Shown: in pieces, positions 710-12,397 of the stretch
Layout of the letters: each line of letters starts with the position of its first letter
How positions within the stretch are numbered: the first letter of the stretch is position 1
From: Candidatus Woesearchaeota archaeon
GTDB lineage: Archaea; Nanobdellota; Nanobdellia; Pacearchaeales; GW2011-AR1
Direction of reading: 5' to 3'
DNA length: 12,397 nt
Assembly: GCA_964360985.1 (NCBI GenBank)
Contig: CAYHYK010000020.1
Span: 1 to 12,397 of the forward strand
Program-made: the position numbers and the translations under genes
The notes under the pieces: model-generated
Told to the model about the DNA's origin: nothing
Seen by the model: only the letters and a program-made list of their open reading frames with translations
Database searches by the model: none

Positions 710-2233
710 ATGAAAAGGAGGCATATTTTGGCAATTTTAATTGGTTTTTTATTCTTAATTAGTATTTTTTTATTTTTATATAGTCCTAGGCTTTTGGGAT
801 ATGTTACTTTTGGAGATCCTTATTTTAACACTTGTTTAATTAATTTAGTAGATAATTTTTCTCCTTTGAATTCTAAATCTATTGTTTATCTGAAATTTAA
901 TAATCTATCTTCTTATGGAGAATATGATTTAATAGCATGTGATTTCTCTGGACATAATAATACTGCTCTTTTAATCAATCCTATATGGAATAGTTCTGGA
1001 GGGCCTTTTAATGATGGGGCTTTTGAATTTAAGGGGAATAATACTATTAATATTATTGATAGAGATGAATTAAGTCCTTCTACAAGTGGAGCATTTTCAG
1101 TTTCATTTTGGATTAAACCTTCTACATTTAATTTTGATGGAAATGTTTTTGATCACGTATGTGAATGTGCAGTTCATCCTGTTTCTAAATATTCTTCTTT
1201 TTTAGGAAACAATCGAGAATGGTATTTTAGAATATATAACGGGAGTGCAGTTGATGGAGGTACAAATAGACCGAAGAGAATTAGTTTTTATGTATTTAAT
1301 TTAACTGGATCTTTAGGAGCTGGTTCTTACTTTCAAGAGGATTTGAATGAAAGTGAATGGATACATGTTATAGGTGTGATGAACGGAACTCATACTTTTA
1401 TTTATAAAAATGGAATATTGAAAGACTCTGATCCAATTTCTAATTATGATATAACCATGGGGAATGGAAATGCACCTATAGTTTTAGGAGGAATATCTCA
1501 AGGAGGTTATTTCTTGGGCTATATGGATGAATTGAGAATATTTAATAGAACTTTGAATTCTAGTGAAATAAATGAATTGTATAATATTAATTTATCTGTT
1601 GTAGAGCATAGTTTGAATGTAGATATAGTATCTCCTGCTAATATTACTTATAACATTTCTAATTATTCTATAAATATAACTCTAGATGAAGAGGGATATT
1701 GTGAATATTCTCTTGATGGAGGAGTTAGTAATAATAGTTTATTATCTAATGATGATATTGAATTTGGTGTTTTGAAAAATGGAAGTGACGGAGGCTATAT
1801 GATAGAGACTTACTGCAATAATAGTTTAGGAGTCAAGAATTATACTGAAAGAGTTTTCTTTTCTATTAATGTGATAAATAATTCTAATTCTAGCGAGGAG
1901 ATTGTTTTAGATTCTGGAGATTCTGGAGGTTCAAGTTCTTCTGGATCTAGCTCTGGTTCAGACAGTTCAGGAGGAGGTTCAGGAGGGGGCGGTGGTGGAA
2001 ATGTTGTTGATGTTGAGGAAAATAGTGTTGAGGATTCAAATGAAGTTCCAGAACCAGAATCACACACTCCTTTGCCTGATGAAGAAACAGATTCTAATGC
2101 GGAAGGAAGTAGTTTAGTTGGATTGGCTATAAATGAAAATCTGGAGAGAAATAAAAGAAATATATCTGTGGCTTTGACAATTATTGTTTTAGCAGTTGGA
2201 GCTTTTGTTGTATATCTGAAATTTAGAACTTAG
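710..2233 (+). CDS. LamG (Laminin_G_3 / concanavalin-A-like) domain cell-surface protein with Ig-like module, Ser/Gly linker and C-terminal membrane anchor
   Basis: N-terminal KRR + hydrophobic signal/anchor (HILAILIGFLFLISIFLFLY). LamG signature FSVSFWIKP ... WIHVIGVMNGTHTFIYKNG ... LGYMDELRIFNRTLNSSEINELY. A beta-rich module follows (IVSPANITY...CEYSLDGG...YCNNSLGVKNYT), then DSGDSGGSSSSGSSSGSDSSGGGSGGGGGG, an acidic stretch, and the C-terminal TM ISVALTIIVLAVGAFVVYLKFRT. I count about 23 N-X-S/T sequons by hand. Confidence 0.8.
   Translation: MKRRHILAILIGFLFLISIFLFLYSPRLLGYVTFGDPYFNTCLINLVDNFSPLNSKSIVYLKFNNLSSYGEYDLIACDFSGHNNTALLINPIWNSSGGPFNDGAFEFKGNNTINIIDRDELSPSTSGAFSVSFWIKPSTFNFDGNVFDHVCECAVHPVSKYSSFLGNNREWYFRIYNGSAVDGGTNRPKRISFYVFNLTGSLGAGSYFQEDLNESEWIHVIGVMNGTHTFIYKNGILKDSDPISNYDITMGNGNAPIVLGGISQGGYFLGYMDELRIFNRTLNSSEINELYNINLSVVEHSLNVDIVSPANITYNISNYSINITLDEEGYCEYSLDGGVSNNSLLSNDDIEFGVLKNGSDGGYMIETYCNNSLGVKNYTERVFFSINVINNSNSSEEIVLDSGDSGGSSSSGSSSGSDSSGGGSGGGGGGNVVDVEENSVEDSNEVPEPESHTPLPDEETDSNAEGSSLVGLAINENLERNKRNISVALTIIVLAVGAFVVYLKFRT
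1908..2003 (+). repeat. Low-complexity Ser/Gly-coding tract with short tandem repeats (local GC spike)
   Basis: ATTCTGGAG occurs twice in tandem (1911-1919, 1920-1928). GTTCAGGAGG recurs at 1965-1974 and 1977-1986, and is followed by GGGGGCGGTGGTGGA. The tract encodes DSGDSGGSSSSGSSSGSDSSGGGSGGGGGG inside the LamG-protein gene. Confidence 0.6.
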
Positions 2234-3035
2234 TTATCCTATAACTATCAAATTCAACGTCCATAAAATCTGTTCTTATTCCTGTATATCCTTCTGATAA
2301 AATTGGAGAACTTGAATCTGTTGTCTCTAGAATCTTAACCCAGTTTCCTGTCCATCCTAAATCCATATATAGTTTAATATTTACTCGGCTTCCTATATTT
2401 CTTATTTCTGTTTTCAAACCGATCCATGTGTTTTTTGGAAGTAAACTTGGCTTTGATAGTCTATTGTATGTTCCAGAAAATATTTTTTCTGATACTAAGG
2501 TATAATATTTCCCATTAAGTTTCTTTTTTATTATTGCTTCTCCGTCTACCCTTACACCTGAATAATAAAGGGTGTCTCCTCCGCTTATATATCGGCTCAT
2601 TAAAAGAAGTCCATTATGTTCTGCCCTATTTGGACTTAAACTTAATTGATCCTTTTTAATGTTAAAATAGACACTTTGATTGAAATTCTGCCATTTTGAT
2701 CTGGAGACCATTCTAAATATATTCTGTGGATGGTAGCCATTGTCTGTATCTACAGGACTGGAAGCAAGATAAGTTAGGCGCCATGGATCGGTAGATGCTA
2801 AAGCCCCTTGAATTGTTTTTCCCCTACCGTTTAGAAGATTTAATTCTGCTCCTGAATTTAACCACCAGTATGGACTGGTACTAAGAGAGGATGATGCAGA
2901 TTCCTGTAGAATGCCTTCAGTATTAAATGAGTAGTGGAAAGGTGGAGTGATTATTGCTGCGGTTAAAGCTTCAGCTCTGACTAAAATTAAGAGAGTTAAC
3001 ACAGCTGCAAACACTAAAAAAAACCTCAATTTCAT
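2223..3035 (-). CDS. Secreted hypothetical protein, predicted concanavalin-like beta-sandwich; paralogous to the C-terminal domain of the neighbouring deacetylase
   Basis: Long ORF. I prefer the ATG at 3035 (MKLRFFLVFAAVLTLLILVRAEA, a classic signal peptide with an A-x-A-like site) over the TTG at 3050 used in the ORF track, because a TATA box sits 24 nt upstream of that ATG. No catalytic motif recognised. Alternating beta-strand-like pattern throughout. Its stop overlaps the 3' end of the convergent LamG gene by 11 nt. Confidence 0.7.
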   Translation of the reverse strand: MKLRFFLVFAAVLTLLILVRAEALTAAIITPPFHYSFNTEGILQESASSSLSTSPYWWLNSGAELNLLNGRGKTIQGALASTDPWRLTYLASSPVDTDNGYHPQNIFRMVSRSKWQNFNQSVYFNIKKDQLSLSPNRAEHNGLLLMSRYISGGDTLYYSGVRVDGEAIIKKKLNGKYYTLVSEKIFSGTYNRLSKPSLLPKNTWIGLKTEIRNIGSRVNIKLYMDLGWTGNWVKILETTDSSSPILSEGYTGIRTDFMDVEFDSYRITKF

Positions 3036-3058
3036 ACAAATATGAGACAAAAATATGC

Positions 3059-8046: not shown

Positions 8047-8052
8047 TTTTTT
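8047..8052 (+). terminator. T6 tract directly after the msrA stop codon
   Basis: TAGTTTTTTAG: the T6 run fills the 4-nt gap to the convergent TrmB gene and overlaps its stop codon (TAA, 8053-8051 on the minus strand). Confidence 0.4.
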
Positions 8053-8785
8053 AGTCTTTTCCAACTTTGTCCCAGAGGTATTGAAAGTATCTTCTATAGT
8101 TCTCTGCGAGCTCTTTACTTTCTATCACAAATACAAATAGATTCTCTCCAAATAAAAACTGTGCTACTTTATACCCGTAAATTACTGTAACTGTTGGATT
8201 GCCTGAAAATTCAAGAGGTAATATTTTAACAGATCCTATATTTTTTATAAGCTTATCTCTCATCTCATGTCTAAAAAGATGATAAGATTTTATATTGTTT
8301 TTAATTCTCCTTTTATTCCAGCTTGCAAAAAATGCTGGAAACTTGGTAGGTACATAATTTCCAGATCCTATCCACCTTGCTTCTCTATAATTAAGCATGT
8401 CTTCCCAGACAGCCTTTATTCCTTCTGCACCTCTAAAAGTTTCTGAAGTTATTTCGATCTTTTTAGTGCTAAATTTTTCTATAAGTTTAGGTAGAATAAT
8501 TTCTACTTCTTCACCAATATTTACGAGATCTTTCTTCTTTTCTTCTATATATCCTATTATTTTACTAGGGTGTGTTACATTAAATCTTCTTTTCTTGTTT
8601 TCTTGAGTATAGTTAACAAGTCCTTTCTCTATTAATTTATTTAATATATCGTAAATGTTCCTTCTTTCCATACCAATCTTTTCATGTATTTTATTAACCT
8701 GGGAATTTCCTAATTCAAGGAGAGCAGAATAAATTTTTATTTCTCCTTCGGAAAGACCAATTTTTCTTAAGAGTGAGATGTCCAT
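8051..8785 (-). CDS. TrmB-family transcriptional regulator (winged helix-turn-helix)
   Basis: The N-terminus LRKIGLSEGEIKIYSALLELGNSQVNKIHEKIGMERRNIYDILNKLIEKGLV is the typical TrmB wHTH. A helical linker and a short C-terminal effector-like domain follow. 244 aa. Confidence 0.85.
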   Translation of the reverse strand: MDISLLRKIGLSEGEIKIYSALLELGNSQVNKIHEKIGMERRNIYDILNKLIEKGLVNYTQENKKRRFNVTHPSKIIGYIEEKKKDLVNIGEEVEIILPKLIEKFSTKKIEITSETFRGAEGIKAVWEDMLNYREARWIGSGNYVPTKFPAFFASWNKRRIKNNIKSYHLFRHEMRDKLIKNIGSVKILPLEFSGNPTVTVIYGYKVAQFLFGENLFVFVIESKELAENYRRYFQYLWDKVGKD

Positions 8786-8805
8786 AATATTTTATAAATT
8801 TTTGG

Positions 8806-8817
8806 CTATATATATTT
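8806..8817. promoter_or_regulatory. Near-palindromic TATA element (CTATATATATTT) in the divergent TrmB / beta-barrel intergenic region; possible bidirectional promoter core
   Basis: Read on the minus strand (AAATATATATAG) it ends about 22 nt before the TrmB ATG at 8785, which is the leaderless spacing. Read on the plus strand it would place a start site near 8838-8841. Confidence 0.35.
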
Positions 8818-8872
8818 ATGGTATTGTATTAGTACCACAAATGTTTAAGTACGATTCTAATTGGAAAAACCA

Positions 8873-9685
8873 ATGAACTTACAAAATAGAATAAAGAAAT
8901 TTATCTTCGGATCTGCCTTAGTCTTGGCTCTCATTCCTGGCAAGATAGAAAGCGATGATATTTACAAGGGAGTAAGAGGACCTACGAATTGGCAGGCTGA
9001 TCTAAGAGTAGGATATACAGAAAGAGAAGATCAAAAAGGCAACTTCACAAAAACATTCTCAAATAATGAGGTTTTGAAGTATTGGAACGGTGAAGATATA
9101 GGAATATTTGGCTTTGTCAATGTTCCAGCATATAAATCAATTGAAACAAACAATTCTAAAAGTGAAGGTTTTGGAGATTTAACTATTGGTTTAGGTCCTA
9201 GAGCTAAATTTGATTCTGAGAAACTAGGCTCCATTCACTTTATTTCTTACGCAGGAGTTAGTTTACCCACTGGAGATGAAAAGAAAACTCCTCCACTAGG
9301 GAATGATAGAATAGACTTTAGGAGTGGAATATTTGCCACATATTTAACTCCTGATAAAGGTATAGAAACAGACTTTTCTTTTGAACATAGTCTAGCAGGA
9401 ACTAATAGTAAAGGTGTTAGAGGACTAGACGAAATGTCTACTGGATTAATTGTAGGAACAAAATTGACGGATAATAATTTGTTTAGAATTGGTTTAGGGT
9501 TGACTTCTAGATTGAGAGAAAATGCAGAAAGTAAATTTGACTATTCATATGGATCTAGAGCGGTACTAAGAGTAACCCCTCCAAAAACAAACTGGCATGT
9601 TGAATTAATAGGAGACTATGATCTGGAAAGTAAAAATCTTCCTGAAGGTTTTGGAGCTAGTTTACAATTAAGAATTAACTTTTAG
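8873..9685 (+). CDS. Signal-peptide protein resembling a 12-stranded outer-membrane beta-barrel (MetA-pathway/'transporter' PF13557-like)
   Basis: I prefer the ATG at 8873 (MNLQNRIKKFIFGSALVLALIPG signal peptide); the ORF track starts at the TTG at 8861. About 12 amphipathic alternating segments, for example ADLRVGYTE, IGIFGFVNV, FGDLTIGLG, IHFISYAGV, FRSGIFATY, TDFSFEHS, GLIVGTKL, FRIGLGLTS, RAVLRVT, HVELIGDY. The C-terminal GFGASLQLRINF ends in Phe, as in a bacterial OMP beta-signal. The fold call is from pattern only. Confidence 0.55.
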   Translation: MNLQNRIKKFIFGSALVLALIPGKIESDDIYKGVRGPTNWQADLRVGYTEREDQKGNFTKTFSNNEVLKYWNGEDIGIFGFVNVPAYKSIETNNSKSEGFGDLTIGLGPRAKFDSEKLGSIHFISYAGVSLPTGDEKKTPPLGNDRIDFRSGIFATYLTPDKGIETDFSFEHSLAGTNSKGVRGLDEMSTGLIVGTKLTDNNLFRIGLGLTSRLRENAESKFDYSYGSRAVLRVTPPKTNWHVELIGDYDLESKNLPEGFGASLQLRINF

Positions 9686-10582
9686 ATTCTTATTCCTATT
9701 TAGTATCATTTTAGTATAAATTTCTTTTTTATATTTATTAAGGCAGTCAATAGAACAACATCCTTTATTTTTATCTTCGCATTCTGGACAGATATTGATG
9801 AGTAGATTACATTTTACATTGTTACAATTTTTGTATAGATCACATTCTTTTTTACAACAAACGCAATTAGTTATTTTTTTACTCTTTGAATCTACATTAG
9901 ATAATAGTCTTTCATCGAATACAAAACATTTTCCTTCCCAGATAGTATTTGGTAATTCTTGACAGAAAGTTATAATTCCACCTTCTAGCTGAGAAACATC
10001 TTTGAAACCTTCCTCTATAAGATATGCTGATGCTTTCTCACATCTTATTCCGCCAGTACAATACATAACTATTTTTTTATCTTTTTTATTTTTTAGCATC
10101 TTGGCAACTTTTGGGAATTCTCTAAAAGAACTTATTTTTGGAGTAACTGCATTTTTGAATTTACCAATTTTAGATTCGTAATCATTTCTGGCATCTAAGA
10201 CAATCATATCTTCTTTGTTTTTGTATAACTCTAGAAATTCTTTTGGAGAGAGATATTTTCCTTTATTTTTCATATTTACCTCTTTATCCAACCTTATTAT
10301 TTCTTTTTTTACTTTTACCATTAATTTCTTAAATGGATGAAAAGTACCTATTTCTTCTTTGAATACCATATCCGAGAAAGAAGGGTAACTTCTAAGAATT
10401 TTTTTATATTTATCAGTTTGTTTTTTAGTGCCTGAGACAGAACCATTAATTCCTTCTTTAGCTAATAGGATTTTTCCTAAAACTCCTATGTTTTTACATT
10501 CTTCTAAATGTCCTAAAGCTAATTTTTCTGGACTTGCGATATTTACAAATTTGTAATATAATAATATATGAATTTTTTCCAT
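9668..10582 (-). CDS. trhO: tRNA uridine(34) hydroxylase TrhO (YceA/UPF0176 rhodanese-domain protein)
   Basis: N-terminal YKF....P, [11 protein letters not shown], and the rhodanese active-site stretch [22 protein letters not shown] (near-identical to recalled E. coli YceA [21 protein letters not shown]). Also [10 protein letters not shown] and the Cys-rich tail C..C...C....NC.N..C.LL...C..C.....GCCS..C, which is also collinear with YceA. Confidence 0.93.
   Translation of the reverse strand: [304 protein letters not shown]
9725..9730 (+). terminator. T6 tract about 40 nt downstream of the beta-barrel gene stop, inside the convergent trhO coding region
   Basis: TTTCTTTTTTATATTTATT on the plus strand. 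The two convergent genes overlap, so there is no intergenic space and any terminator must lie within trhO. Confidence 0.3.
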
Positions 10583-10603
10583 AATTATTCATTGATGCTT
10601 GCC

Positions 10604-10610
10604 TTATAAA
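10604..10610 (-). promoter_or_regulatory. Archaeal TATA box (minus strand AATATTTATAAGG) for trhO
   Basis: It ends 22 nt before the ATG at 10582 with no SD motif in between, which is the leaderless spacing. Confidence 0.45.
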
Positions 10611-10681
10611 TATTATTCTGACTGCTATAAGTAGAAAAGACGCTTGATAGAAGTAGAACTAAGAAAACTTAGTGCTTTGAT

Positions 10682-10699
10682 ATAAATAAAAAATTAAAA
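10682..10699 (-). terminator. Oligo-T terminator region of the ribosomal stalk operon
   Basis: The minus strand immediately after the P1 TAA reads TTTTAATTTTTTATTTAT (a T4 and a T6). Confidence 0.5.
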
Positions 10700-10981
10700 T
10701 TAACCAAACAAAGCACTTAAACCAGCTGCAGATTCTGAAGGCTTTTCTTCTTTCTTTTCTTCCTTCTTCTCTGGAGCGCTAGACGCGGCAGGTGCTGCGG
10801 CAACTGCACTTGCATTTGCCAATTCAGATGCTATATCTACGCCTTGCAGGCTTGCAATCAATACTTTTACCTTTGCTTCGTCAACTTCAACGCCAGTAGC
10901 ATGAATCACTTTTTTTAGGTGTGCTTCATTTACAGGTTGTCCAAGCTTATGTAGCAATAAGGCTCCGTAGATGTATTCCAT
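10700..10981 (-). CDS. rpl12: 50S ribosomal stalk protein P1 (archaeal L12)
   Basis: [11 protein letters not shown]... N-terminal dimerisation domain, an Ala-rich hinge, and the [23 protein letters not shown] acidic/hydrophobic tail diagnostic of archaeal/eukaryotic P-proteins. GGAGG sits 10 nt upstream. Its ATG overlaps the P0 stop (TAATG). Confidence 0.95.
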
Positions 10982-11778
10982 TATTGTGTTTCCTCCTTAT
11001 GATTTTTGTTAATGAGACTTTCAATAGCTTTTTCTTCTGCATTGGCTTTTGCGAAAATATAAGAGATTGTTTCTTTACATACATATCCTATTTTTGCTGC
11101 AAAACCTAAAGATTTTCCTATTGCTGACCTTAATTCTTCAAAGGCAGACTTCTTATCTATTACAATATTAGCATAAACTTGGTCTGAAACTGAATCGTAA
11201 GCTGCAACCGGTATAAAACCTACTTTCATAGGGAAAATATTAAGTTTACTTAAAACTGAGGCAACATTTTCTTTAATTGGTTCTCCCTTTTTTGCTACAA
11301 CTACAGATTGTTTTATCGCTAGTTTTCCACCTTCTACTGCTACTTTAAGTCCGACTGAAGATAACTCTGAAATTGCTGGACCTGGAATAAGATCTGTTGG
11401 TCCAGGTTCTACTGTAATATCTTCAAAAGGGATATCTCCTGTTTTTGCTTTAGTAGGTGATTGATTGTCTGCTAAAATACCTGATAATTCAAAAGCATCT
11501 AGATCTGAGAAGAAAAGGGCGATATCTGCAGTAATATACTCTTTAATATTCTGTAATGCTCCTTTTTCGGTGGATGAAATTGCCCTTAGTATTAATGATT
11601 TCTTTGCAACTCTAATATCTACTTTTCCTCTTAGATTCTTTTTTATTGAATGAAATTGAGATGAAGGAAGGTTTTTTGTTGATACTATTAAAAGAGTTTT
11701 ACTATGTTTTATTTTATCTACTAAAGAACTAACAATTTTCTTTTTATCTGTTAAATTTGCAGTAACTAACTTTGACAT
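10981..11778 (-). CDS. rpl10: 50S ribosomal protein uL10 (P0), unusually short form lacking the conserved C-terminal stalk tail
   Basis: It sits between uL1 and P1. The N-terminal uL10 domain carries LVDKIK..KTLLIVS..NLPS.QF..IKK.LRG...IRV.KKSL. An inserted domain II is present ([21 protein letters not shown]...[12 protein letters not shown]). The protein ends ...[36 protein letters not shown] at 265 aa. Confidence 0.9.
10992..10996 (-). promoter_or_regulatory. Shine-Dalgarno GGAGG for rpl12 (P1)
   Basis: The minus strand reads AAGGAGGAAACACAATAATG. Confidence 0.6.
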
Positions 11779-11779
11779 T

Positions 11780-12397
11780 TTAATTTACCTCCACTCTTAT
11801 AGGTTTTGACATTGTCAATTTTATCATTACACTTTTGATATTATCTCTTTTCTTTGGCAAAGCGTTTGCAATTCCATTGTAAACTGCTTGTATATTCTCA
11901 ATTATCTCTTCTTGTTTCATACTTTCTTTTGCTACAGAAATTTTAACGCTTGCTTCTTTAACTCTTATTTTTAGTGATTTTGATATTTTTGTTAATTCGT
12001 TCTTTATTGCATCTGGAGTTTCATGCATAATTATTCCTAACTGAGGAGAAGGCATTTTACCTGCAGGACCTAAAATTTTACCAAAAGTTGTCGCTACTGA
12101 CGGCATTAATGGTGCAGCTGCAATGAAGAAATCGTACTGTTTTATTAAATTTTTAAGAGATTTTTTATCTTTATACTGTGCAAATTCTAGTTTTGAAATT
12201 GTAGGTAATAAATCAGACTTTTTATCTAAAAATCCGCAAACTTTCTTCTCTTTTACTTTATGAGGAACATTAATTATTGCACTTATATTTTCTTTTCTTA
12301 AGTCAAGACCTTTTAAATTTACAATTAAGTCTATAGACTGCGCGAATTTTCGCTTTTTCTCTTTAGCTAATTCTTCTAATGCTGATTTTACATTCAT
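11780..12397 (-). CDS. rpl1: 50S ribosomal protein uL1
   Basis: Has KRKF.QSIDL.VNLKG.DL.K...I, FIAAAPLMP.V....GKILGP.GKMP and IKVSVAKESM. The position upstream of P0/P1 matches the archaeal L1-L10-L12 operon. The ATG occupies the last three bases of the window, so the CDS looks complete (205 aa), but its upstream region is not visible. Confidence 0.93.
   Translation of the reverse strand: MNVKSALEELAKEKKRKFAQSIDLIVNLKGLDLRKENISAIINVPHKVKEKKVCGFLDKKSDLLPTISKLEFAQYKDKKSLKNLIKQYDFFIAAAPLMPSVATTFGKILGPAGKMPSPQLGIIMHETPDAIKNELTKISKSLKIRVKEASVKISVAKESMKQEEIIENIQAVYNGIANALPKKRDNIKSVMIKLTMSKPIRVEVN
11788..11792 (-). promoter_or_regulatory. Shine-Dalgarno GGAGG for rpl10 (P0)
   Basis: The minus strand reads GTGGAGGTAAATTAAAATG. 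The uL1 stop lies 1 nt before the P0 ATG. Confidence 0.6.

Follow-up and report, generated by a model that had tools for sequence, protein, structure and literature searches.

A COG4313-type beta-barrel gene and its divergent TrmB-like regulator in DPANN archaea

The locus and its two-gene cassette

We analysed a stretch of 12,397 nt from Candidatus Woesearchaeota archaeon (assembly GCA_964360985.1, contig CAYHYK010000020.1, hereafter the window), which holds a gene for a bacterial-type 12-strand beta-barrel protein and, divergent from it, a gene for a TrmB/TrmBL2-like transcriptional regulator. The features of the locus are collected in Table 1. The source genome comprises 640 kb on 39 contigs and is 80.6% complete with 2.3% contamination. 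The GC content is about 31% along the whole window, and its level neither dips nor rises at the barrel gene. An earlier interpretation made from the letters and a list of open reading frames (the sequence-only reading) had placed the barrel in a forward-strand frame at 8861-9685. This frame is present in our list of open reading frames (ORFs), and so are the signal peptide, the GFGDLTIGLG segment and the C-terminus ending in Phe (LRINF) that were described for it.

Table 1. Features of the barrel-regulator locus, with positions in the window
Feature	Position	Strand	Basis and remarks
Segment holding the regulator, barrel and TrhO-like rhodanese genes	8047..10699 (2.65 kb)	.	Missing at this site in same-genus genomes
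TrmB/TrmBL2-like regulator, 244-245 aa: winged helix-turn-helix, long helix, phospholipase D (PLD)-fold C-terminal domain	8051..8785	-	Pfam, AlphaFold2, Foldseek
A/T-rich TATA-like box of the regulator, putative promoter	8807..8818	-	About 25 nt upstream of start codon 8785; equivalent box in related intergenic regions
Palindromic operator candidate TGGTATTGTATTAGTACCA (TGGT-N10-TACCA)	8819..8837	.	Between the two divergent promoters
TATA-like box of the barrel gene, putative	8844..8851	+	Read from sequence; 21 nt before ATG 8873
COG4313/PF13557-type 12-strand beta-barrel gene, 270 aa	8873..9685 including stop; frame open back to TTG 8861	+	ORF, Pfam, AlphaFold2, Foldseek, VIA-align
Sec-type signal peptide, residues 1-27	8873..8953	+	Basic n-region and hydrophobic core; predicted cleavage before a DD pair
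Mature N-terminal segment DDIYKGVRGPTN, candidate lumen plug	8954..8989	+	Most conserved stretch of the family
Loop 2/strand 4 motif GFGDLTIGLG (Asp-x-Thr hallmark of COG4313)	9167..9196	+	Aligned to SGVGDLTLT of 4rl8
Loop 3 motif PTGD...LGNDRID (Pro-Thr-Gly hallmark of COG4313)	9266..9316	+	Aligned to APTGNY...NLGENR of 4rl8
Last strand, ends LQLRINF, beta-signal-like	9647..9682	+	Terminal Phe; hydrophobic at -3, -5 and -7

We take ATG 8873 as the likely start of the barrel gene, because the spacing of 20-21 nt from TATA-like box to ATG recurs in relatives (loci L023, L024 and L030) and because TTG 8861, only 9 nt past the box, lies too near to it. A box at this distance from the ATG would imply a leaderless or near-leaderless barrel mRNA. 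In 87% of 76 family members an Ala precedes the conserved mature N-terminus.

The sequence-only reading had also proposed a TrmB-type regulator divergent from the barrel, and the gene at that place matches the Pfam TrmB family (PF01978) with an E-value of 6.9e-18. Its AlphaFold2 model has a mean predicted local distance difference test (pLDDT) score of 90.3, and the top Foldseek matches, over the full length, are TrmBL2 (5bpd/5bqt, E about 1e-12) and TrmB (3qph). The regulator hence shares the TrmB winged helix and the full TrmBL2-like architecture with TrmB/TrmBL2 of Thermococcales (PDB 3qph, 5bpd). Pfam returned nothing past its N-terminal domain, including no match to the TrmB sugar-binding family, and its C-terminal half is recognised as a PLD fold only. 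In lacking a match to the sugar-binding domain family it differs from TrmB proper, as it does in being part of a large DPANN expansion; within the phylum a match to the regulator family was found in 268 of 401 sampled genomes, many with at least six copies. This count includes the unpublished genomes G436, G437, G507, G515 and G568, on which none of our other claims depends. The expanded copies often stand in tandem, each divergent from a different small gene (for instance L047, G493:C2, 3466-7302).

The context of the barrel's relatives was read from genome loci and metagenome loci, with genome sampling confined to the phylum. The divergent regulator stands next to the barrel in 9 of 10 genome loci; among 19 metagenome loci it does so in 17, and two are cut off. 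The remaining flanking genes vary between loci. A third component of the cassette was considered and rejected, as the ORFs that sometimes lie between regulator and barrel are not homologous to one another. The 304-aa ORFs found downstream in G000 and G271 are likewise unrelated and agree in length by coincidence. Pairwise identities of barrels and of their regulators are correlated (r 0.69; 0 of 2000 Mantel permutations reach this r), at a mean identity of 55% for the regulator and 41% for the barrel.

The intergenic region has a recurrent layout of TATA-like box, TGGT-N10-TACCA, 6 nt, TATA-like box, about 21 nt and ATG, which is exact in 10 of 14 loci. Other related loci carry shorter-spacer variants of the palindrome, and locus L006, whose regulator diverges strongly (27% identity), has another palindrome. 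The palindrome at 8819-8837 is the sole such site in the 640-kb genome, with 0.07 expected by chance in the window. It is presumably unlike the glycolytic motif of Thermococcales.

Taken together the loci show a two-gene cassette made up of the barrel and a dedicated TrmB/TrmBL2-like regulator, with a probable operator between their promoters. We infer that the regulator is a dedicated one-component switch. Repression of both genes seems the most likely outcome of binding, because the palindrome occupies the position of the TFB recognition element (BRE) and TATA box in both promoters. The conserved cassette, the intact frames and the co-varying regulator also support the earlier view of a regulated gene rather than a decaying one.

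Two relatives of the regulator are found with other partners. In G301 the place of the barrel is taken by a tandem pair of Peripla_BP_6 solute-binding genes, divergent from an orthologous regulator of 59% identity (L044:5838-8791, G301:C3). In a Nanoarchaeota genome (L043:4522-5616 on the reverse strand, G418:C35) an orthologue of 63% identity is divergent from an orphan secreted protein of 364 aa, P0138. This protein has a signal peptide like that of the barrel family and an end, VVVDLDYKF, like that of outer membrane proteins (OMPs). It matches no Pfam family, a search of 5.8 billion proteins yielded no homologue, and profile comparison showed no similarity to the barrels. Judged from its sequence features, P0138 may be a second kind of barrel.

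Fold and family of the barrel

The suggestion that the protein belongs to PF13557 proved correct, with a hidden Markov model (HMM) match of 38.6 bits (curated cut-off 22, E 1.6e-9); 21 of the 25 members of a broadened alignment also score above the PF13557 threshold. An AlphaFold2 model built with 15 homologues (pLDDT 85.5, predicted template modelling score 0.77) contains 12 long strands between residues 40 and 269, joined by very short loops. The sequence-only reading had counted about 12 amphipathic segments. This holds for 11 of the 12 strands, in which one face is hydrophobic (Kyte-Doolittle means of about 0.1 to +2.4) and the opposite face polar or charged (about -0.3 to -2.9), but not for strand 2, which has no such contrast.

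Bacterial outer-membrane barrels were the sole Foldseek matches, with chain C of 4rl8 (4rl8_C) at a template modelling (TM) score of 0.72. The same chain was the best match in VIA-align (Z 23.7, root-mean-square deviation 2.3 A over 231 of 242 mature residues), followed by FapF at Z 22.9 and then by autotransporter barrels at Z 18-20. Model and matches thus support the proposed bacterial-type 12-strand barrel. At the level of sequence, a narrow profile of the family matched no PDB sequence, and a profile broadened with distant relatives detected 4rl8 at E 1.3e-9 and FapF at 2e-6.

The entry 4rl8 is Pput2725 of Pseudomonas putida F1, which like TcpY and SphA is a COG4313/PF13557 channel. With these channels the DPANN barrel has the Pfam family, the 12-strand fold and the two loop motifs L2 and L3 in common, and with Pput2725 also the Sec signal peptide, a short conserved segment before strand 1 and a last strand that resembles the beta-signal and ends in Phe. 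In loop 2, G99, G101 and D102 are kept in 82-95% of the family, and in loop 3, P132, R146 and D148 in 84-93%. A cluster in loops L2 to L4 of Pput2725 is formed by Asp92, Thr94, Pro119, Thr120, Gly121, Tyr123, Asn130, Asn134 and Asn166 (PMC4493636). By HMM alignment to 4rl8 five of these nine residues are matched, namely those of D-x-T and P-T-G, while Tyr123 and Asn130 are replaced and the mapping of Asn166 is unsure.

Nearly all conserved positions among 76 representatives lie on the polar face (Q41, D43, R45, R110, R146, D148, R229, R233, H242, E244, R267 and N269). The first 12 residues of the mature protein have a mean column identity of 0.68, compared with 0.4-0.55 in the strands. Glu2 and Gly6 of the Pput2725 plug (PMC4493636) have counterparts in the DPANN barrel, whose second mature residue is acidic and whose sixth is Gly. 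The conserved polar face and N-terminal stretch fit a membrane-embedded barrel with a functional lumen, which the N-terminal segment would plug.

R267 and N269 of the last strand are kept in 97-99% of the family, and a terminal Phe is found in only 51 of 100 full-length relatives. As half of the relatives lack this residue, in contrast to the bacterial channels, and about one in four has a short basic extension, the beta-signal constraint looks relaxed. The DPANN barrels further differ from the COG4313 channels in forming a subfamily of their own, with the signatures DDIFKGVRGPTxWQ at the N-terminus and RYNF at the C-terminus, and in being paired with an archaeal TrmB-type regulator and not with genes for aromatic or sphingosine catabolism. 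The setting differs as well, as the bacterial channels reside in a diderm outer membrane and are assembled by the beta-barrel assembly machinery (BAM), whereas this barrel is encoded by an archaeon.

FapF is a trimeric transporter of polypeptides. As the secretion channel for functional amyloid in Pseudomonas (PDB 5o65/5o67/5o68), it too is a plugged barrel of 12 strands, and its place as second-best structural match, along with its detection by the broadened profile, raises the idea that the DPANN protein is a pore of this kind, through which an unfolded secreted protein would cross an outer layer. The DPANN barrel, however, has only about 12 mature residues before strand 1 and lacks the N-terminal periplasmic/coiled-coil region of FapF; there is no fap operon, nor are fap-like or amyloid subunit genes conserved nearby, and 4rl8 is the better match in both sequence and structure. 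We find a polypeptide or amyloid export pore very improbable.

A barrel that is secreted in soluble form or associated with the S-layer, and binds a hydrophobic ligand without being embedded in a membrane, would suit a cell that has no known second membrane and in which we found no insertion machinery (see below). The surface pattern is the reverse of what such a protein calls for, as it is the variable face that is hydrophobic in most strands, with polar or charged residues on the conserved one, and all strong structural matches are integral outer-membrane barrels. We therefore regard a soluble barrel as quite improbable.

Distribution, origin and mobility

An exhaustive profile search of 1.84 billion representative sequences returned only 123 clusters, 104 of them at E <= 1e-10, and the subfamily amounts to about 100 clusters at 50% identity. 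A Sec signal peptide, a DDIFKGVRGPT-type N-terminus and an RYNF-type end are shared by almost all clusters. Every member whose context could be inspected either lies in a DPANN genome or adjoins a DPANN-type regulator; the named records of the family are one Woesearchaeota and one Nanoarchaeota metagenome-assembled genome. Among named clusters in the ESM Atlas, the most similar belong to PF13557/SphA and come from Verrucomicrobiota and Bacteroidota.

The barrel is rare. It was found in 7 of 400 sampled genomes of the phylum, which belong to seven families, in 3 of 155 genomes of the same family (genomes of the same order) and in none of four genomes of the same genus. Carriers thus make up about 2% of the sampled genomes. 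At least 11 independent DPANN genomes carry it, some of them near-complete genomes of the same class with the gene on contigs of 94-536 kb; one copy lies on the 536-kb contig of a two-contig genome that is 97% complete. Carrier-type genomes measure 0.5-1.6 Mb and are of the DPANN symbiont type. The DNA is present in three public groundwater metagenome runs from one study, and one of these runs may be its origin.

A shorter subfamily of 209-233 aa is represented by L015:1018-1647 (reverse strand, G516) and L014:1477-2178 (forward strand, G366). It has the same signal peptide and an N-terminal DFYxGFRGP..Q.D motif, and lacks the GFGD and PTGD loops. In G516 its operon is again divergent from a TrmB-like paralogue. 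Since the shorter subfamily also has a TrmB-like partner, the cassette type may exceed the 2% counted.

Could the gene be an artefact or a relic, that is, bacterial contamination, a binning error or a recent transfer in decay? The family is otherwise bacterial, and one copy, in G187 (L008:3753-4415, reverse strand, G187:C22), has an in-frame TAA near its 5' end beside an intact regulator and is either a pseudogene or an assembly error. On the contig of the window, however, the barrel is physically linked to the archaeal ribosomal protein genes L1, L10/P0 and P1 at 10700-12397, and the L10/P0 protein carries the archaeal/eukaryotic insertion domain. This bears out the earlier statement that the contig is truly archaeal and that faulty binning is no explanation. 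The number of independent DPANN carriers, the length of their contigs and a locus GC that spans 28-45% between cassettes point the same way, as do frames that stay intact, motifs that are kept and a regulator that co-evolves with the barrel. An artefact or relic is hardly credible.

The copies do not follow the taxonomy of their carriers. The window copy is 60% identical to a metagenome copy and only 36-39% to copies of its own GTDB family, and the three barrel copies of that family do not form one clade (approximately unbiased test, p 2.4e-52). Pairs of barrel copies are either more than 99% or at most 62% identical. In the same genus the distance from msrA to the P1 gene is 87 bp in G107 and about 420 bp in G084, against 2.65 kb in the window. 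We detected no direct or inverted repeats and no tRNA genes flanking this 2.65-kb segment. Given the empty site in same-genus genomes and a tree that contradicts taxonomy, the cassette moves horizontally among DPANN lineages. The sequence-only reading had set an acquisition from bacteria beside an unusual envelope and a host-directed pore, and made no choice among the three. The first of these, taken as a recent import, has to be corrected: the barrels form a separate DPANN-linked subfamily to which the bacterial PF13557 proteins are only distant kin. From these comparisons we conclude that the gene represents an old DPANN subfamily passed between DPANN lineages rather than a fresh bacterial import.

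Two further genes were noted at loci of the cassette. The UPF0176/rhodanese (TrhO-like) gene of the window, at 9668-10582 on the reverse strand, is convergent with the barrel, and its homologue in G084 (70% nucleotide identity) lies on another contig. On a 112-kb metagenome contig with the cassette, an enzyme utilising phosphoenolpyruvate (PEP), of the PEP synthase or pyruvate phosphate dikinase (PPDK) type, is split by a LAGLIDADG intein (L032:13652-16678, reverse strand).

From fold, family, cassette and distribution we hold it very probable that the gene encodes a COG4313-type barrel which is functional, under regulation and native to DPANN archaea.

Insertion, location and possible role

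The earlier suggestion to look for BamA/Omp85 or other barrels was followed in five carrier genomes (80.6-97% complete), with control genomes in which the same families were detected. In these five carriers Omp85 was not found, POTRA gave one sub-threshold match only, and OMP_b-brl, FadL, OprD, KdgM and Gcw_chp were not found. The carriers of the DPANN barrel hence differ from the bacteria with COG4313 channels in having no recognisable Omp85/BAM, POTRA or other outer-membrane barrel known to Pfam. A crude score for amphipathic strands failed to separate the barrel from other ORFs. A stricter but still heuristic filter, which asked for a signal peptide, an aromatic end and an alternating last strand and allowed no helix, picked the barrel ORF alone in the source genome and no second OMP-like ORF. 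At 2223-3050 on the reverse strand of the window, a secreted 275-aa protein with no Pfam match, which ends in FDSYRITKF and adjoins a polysaccharide gene set, passes the filter for signal peptide and aromatic end and lacks the alternating last strand.

We propose that the regulator binds the palindrome and represses the barrel and its own gene until its C-terminal domain senses a ligand. The barrel would then be exported by Sec and, with no help from BAM, fold into a lipid layer at the surface of the archaeon itself, either its only membrane or an outer layer as yet unseen. There it might let small solutes of amphipathic or hydrophobic nature pass in a gated manner, by analogy with what has been proposed for the bacterial relatives. 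For this reading as a whole, a regulated and plugged COG4313-type channel at the archaeon's own surface that is inserted without BAM, we consider the chances to be about even.

Several points weigh against it. With no Omp85 or POTRA found, insertion has to be spontaneous or to proceed via an unknown factor. The carrier group is not known to have a lipid layer besides the cytoplasmic membrane, a channel for hydrophobic solutes has no obvious use in a one-membrane cell, and a barrel in an energised membrane could leak. The objection of a leak is weaker because four of the five carriers (G000, G134, G074 and G350), the 97%-complete two-contig genome among them, gave no match for the ATP synthase A/B subunits (PF00006), while 14 of 14 controls matched. 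The candidate plug segment was modelled by AlphaFold2 at a confidence below 50. Binding by the regulator and the direction of regulation are deduced from sequence. Finally, no RNA run containing the sequence appeared among the public runs listed.

The protein might instead be aimed at a host, as a secreted barrel that enters the membrane of an attached host cell and gives the symbiont a gated path to metabolites or lipids that it cannot make. Such a pore would suit the small genomes of the carriers and their symbiont type, the want of BAM and of any further recognisable outer-membrane protein in them, and a tight regulation, which would fit expression triggered by contact; the very short loops of the model should moreover cut the cost of spontaneous insertion. 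There are precedents in PorB of Neisseria, which enters mitochondria, and PopA of Bdellovibrio, which enters the inner membrane of the prey (PMC12228718). These transfers show that an outer-membrane-type barrel can reach a membrane without BAM, as is needed whether the DPANN barrel acts on the host or at its own surface, but the producers are diderm bacteria that assemble the barrel first by BAM, and the families and oligomeric states are unrelated. Against a pore for the host, the variable flanks of the cassette contain no conserved gene for a delivery system, an adhesin or a toxin-like protein; a conserved plug and lumen speak for a channel that is selective and normally closed, not for a lytic pore; and the pairing of the orthologous regulator in G301 with solute-binding proteins points to uptake by the symbiont itself. 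We hold a host-directed pore to be doubtful, though it deserves to be taken seriously.

A channel at the archaeon's own surface is favoured because there is no partner for delivery or attachment, because plug and lumen look selective, and because related regulators are paired with uptake proteins. An outer membrane of its own is not an absurd assumption, since double membranes have been reported in other archaea, namely ARMAN, Altiarchaeum, Ignicoccus and Methanomassiliicoccus (PMC4243693). One accessory cassette cannot, on the other hand, define an outer membrane.

Integral beta-barrels are textbook markers of the outer membranes of bacteria, mitochondria and plastids, and are thought to need an insertase of the Omp85 family. 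Our literature search found no description of COG4313/PF13557 proteins or of verified barrel porins in DPANN archaea; the sole mention was one sentence on a possible PopA relative in Altiarchaeales. What is new here is a DPANN barrel with sequence-level homology to a solved bacterial channel, together with its dedicated TrmB-type regulator, a candidate operator and the mobility of the cassette. As can be verified from sequence, the barrel belongs to a bacterial channel family with a solved structure, and archaea in which no Omp85 insertase was found conserve, regulate and exchange it.

Further, we speculate that DPANN archaea of the Woesearchaeota/Pacearchaeota type put bacterial-type barrels in a lipid layer, be it an unrecognised outer layer around their own cells or a host membrane, with no Omp85/BAM, and that the COG4313 cassette is one of several barrel families that are exchanged and individually regulated; so wide a generalisation we think unlikely. 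The cassette nevertheless gives a handle on the envelope and host interface of uncultured DPANN archaea and on the question whether barrels assemble in cells that lack BAM, and with a defined regulator, a candidate operator and a characterised homologue (Pput2725/SphA) a direct comparison is possible. If DPANN barrels are indeed assembled without BAM, they would add a third cellular setting for barrel membrane proteins, beyond diderm bacteria and organelles.

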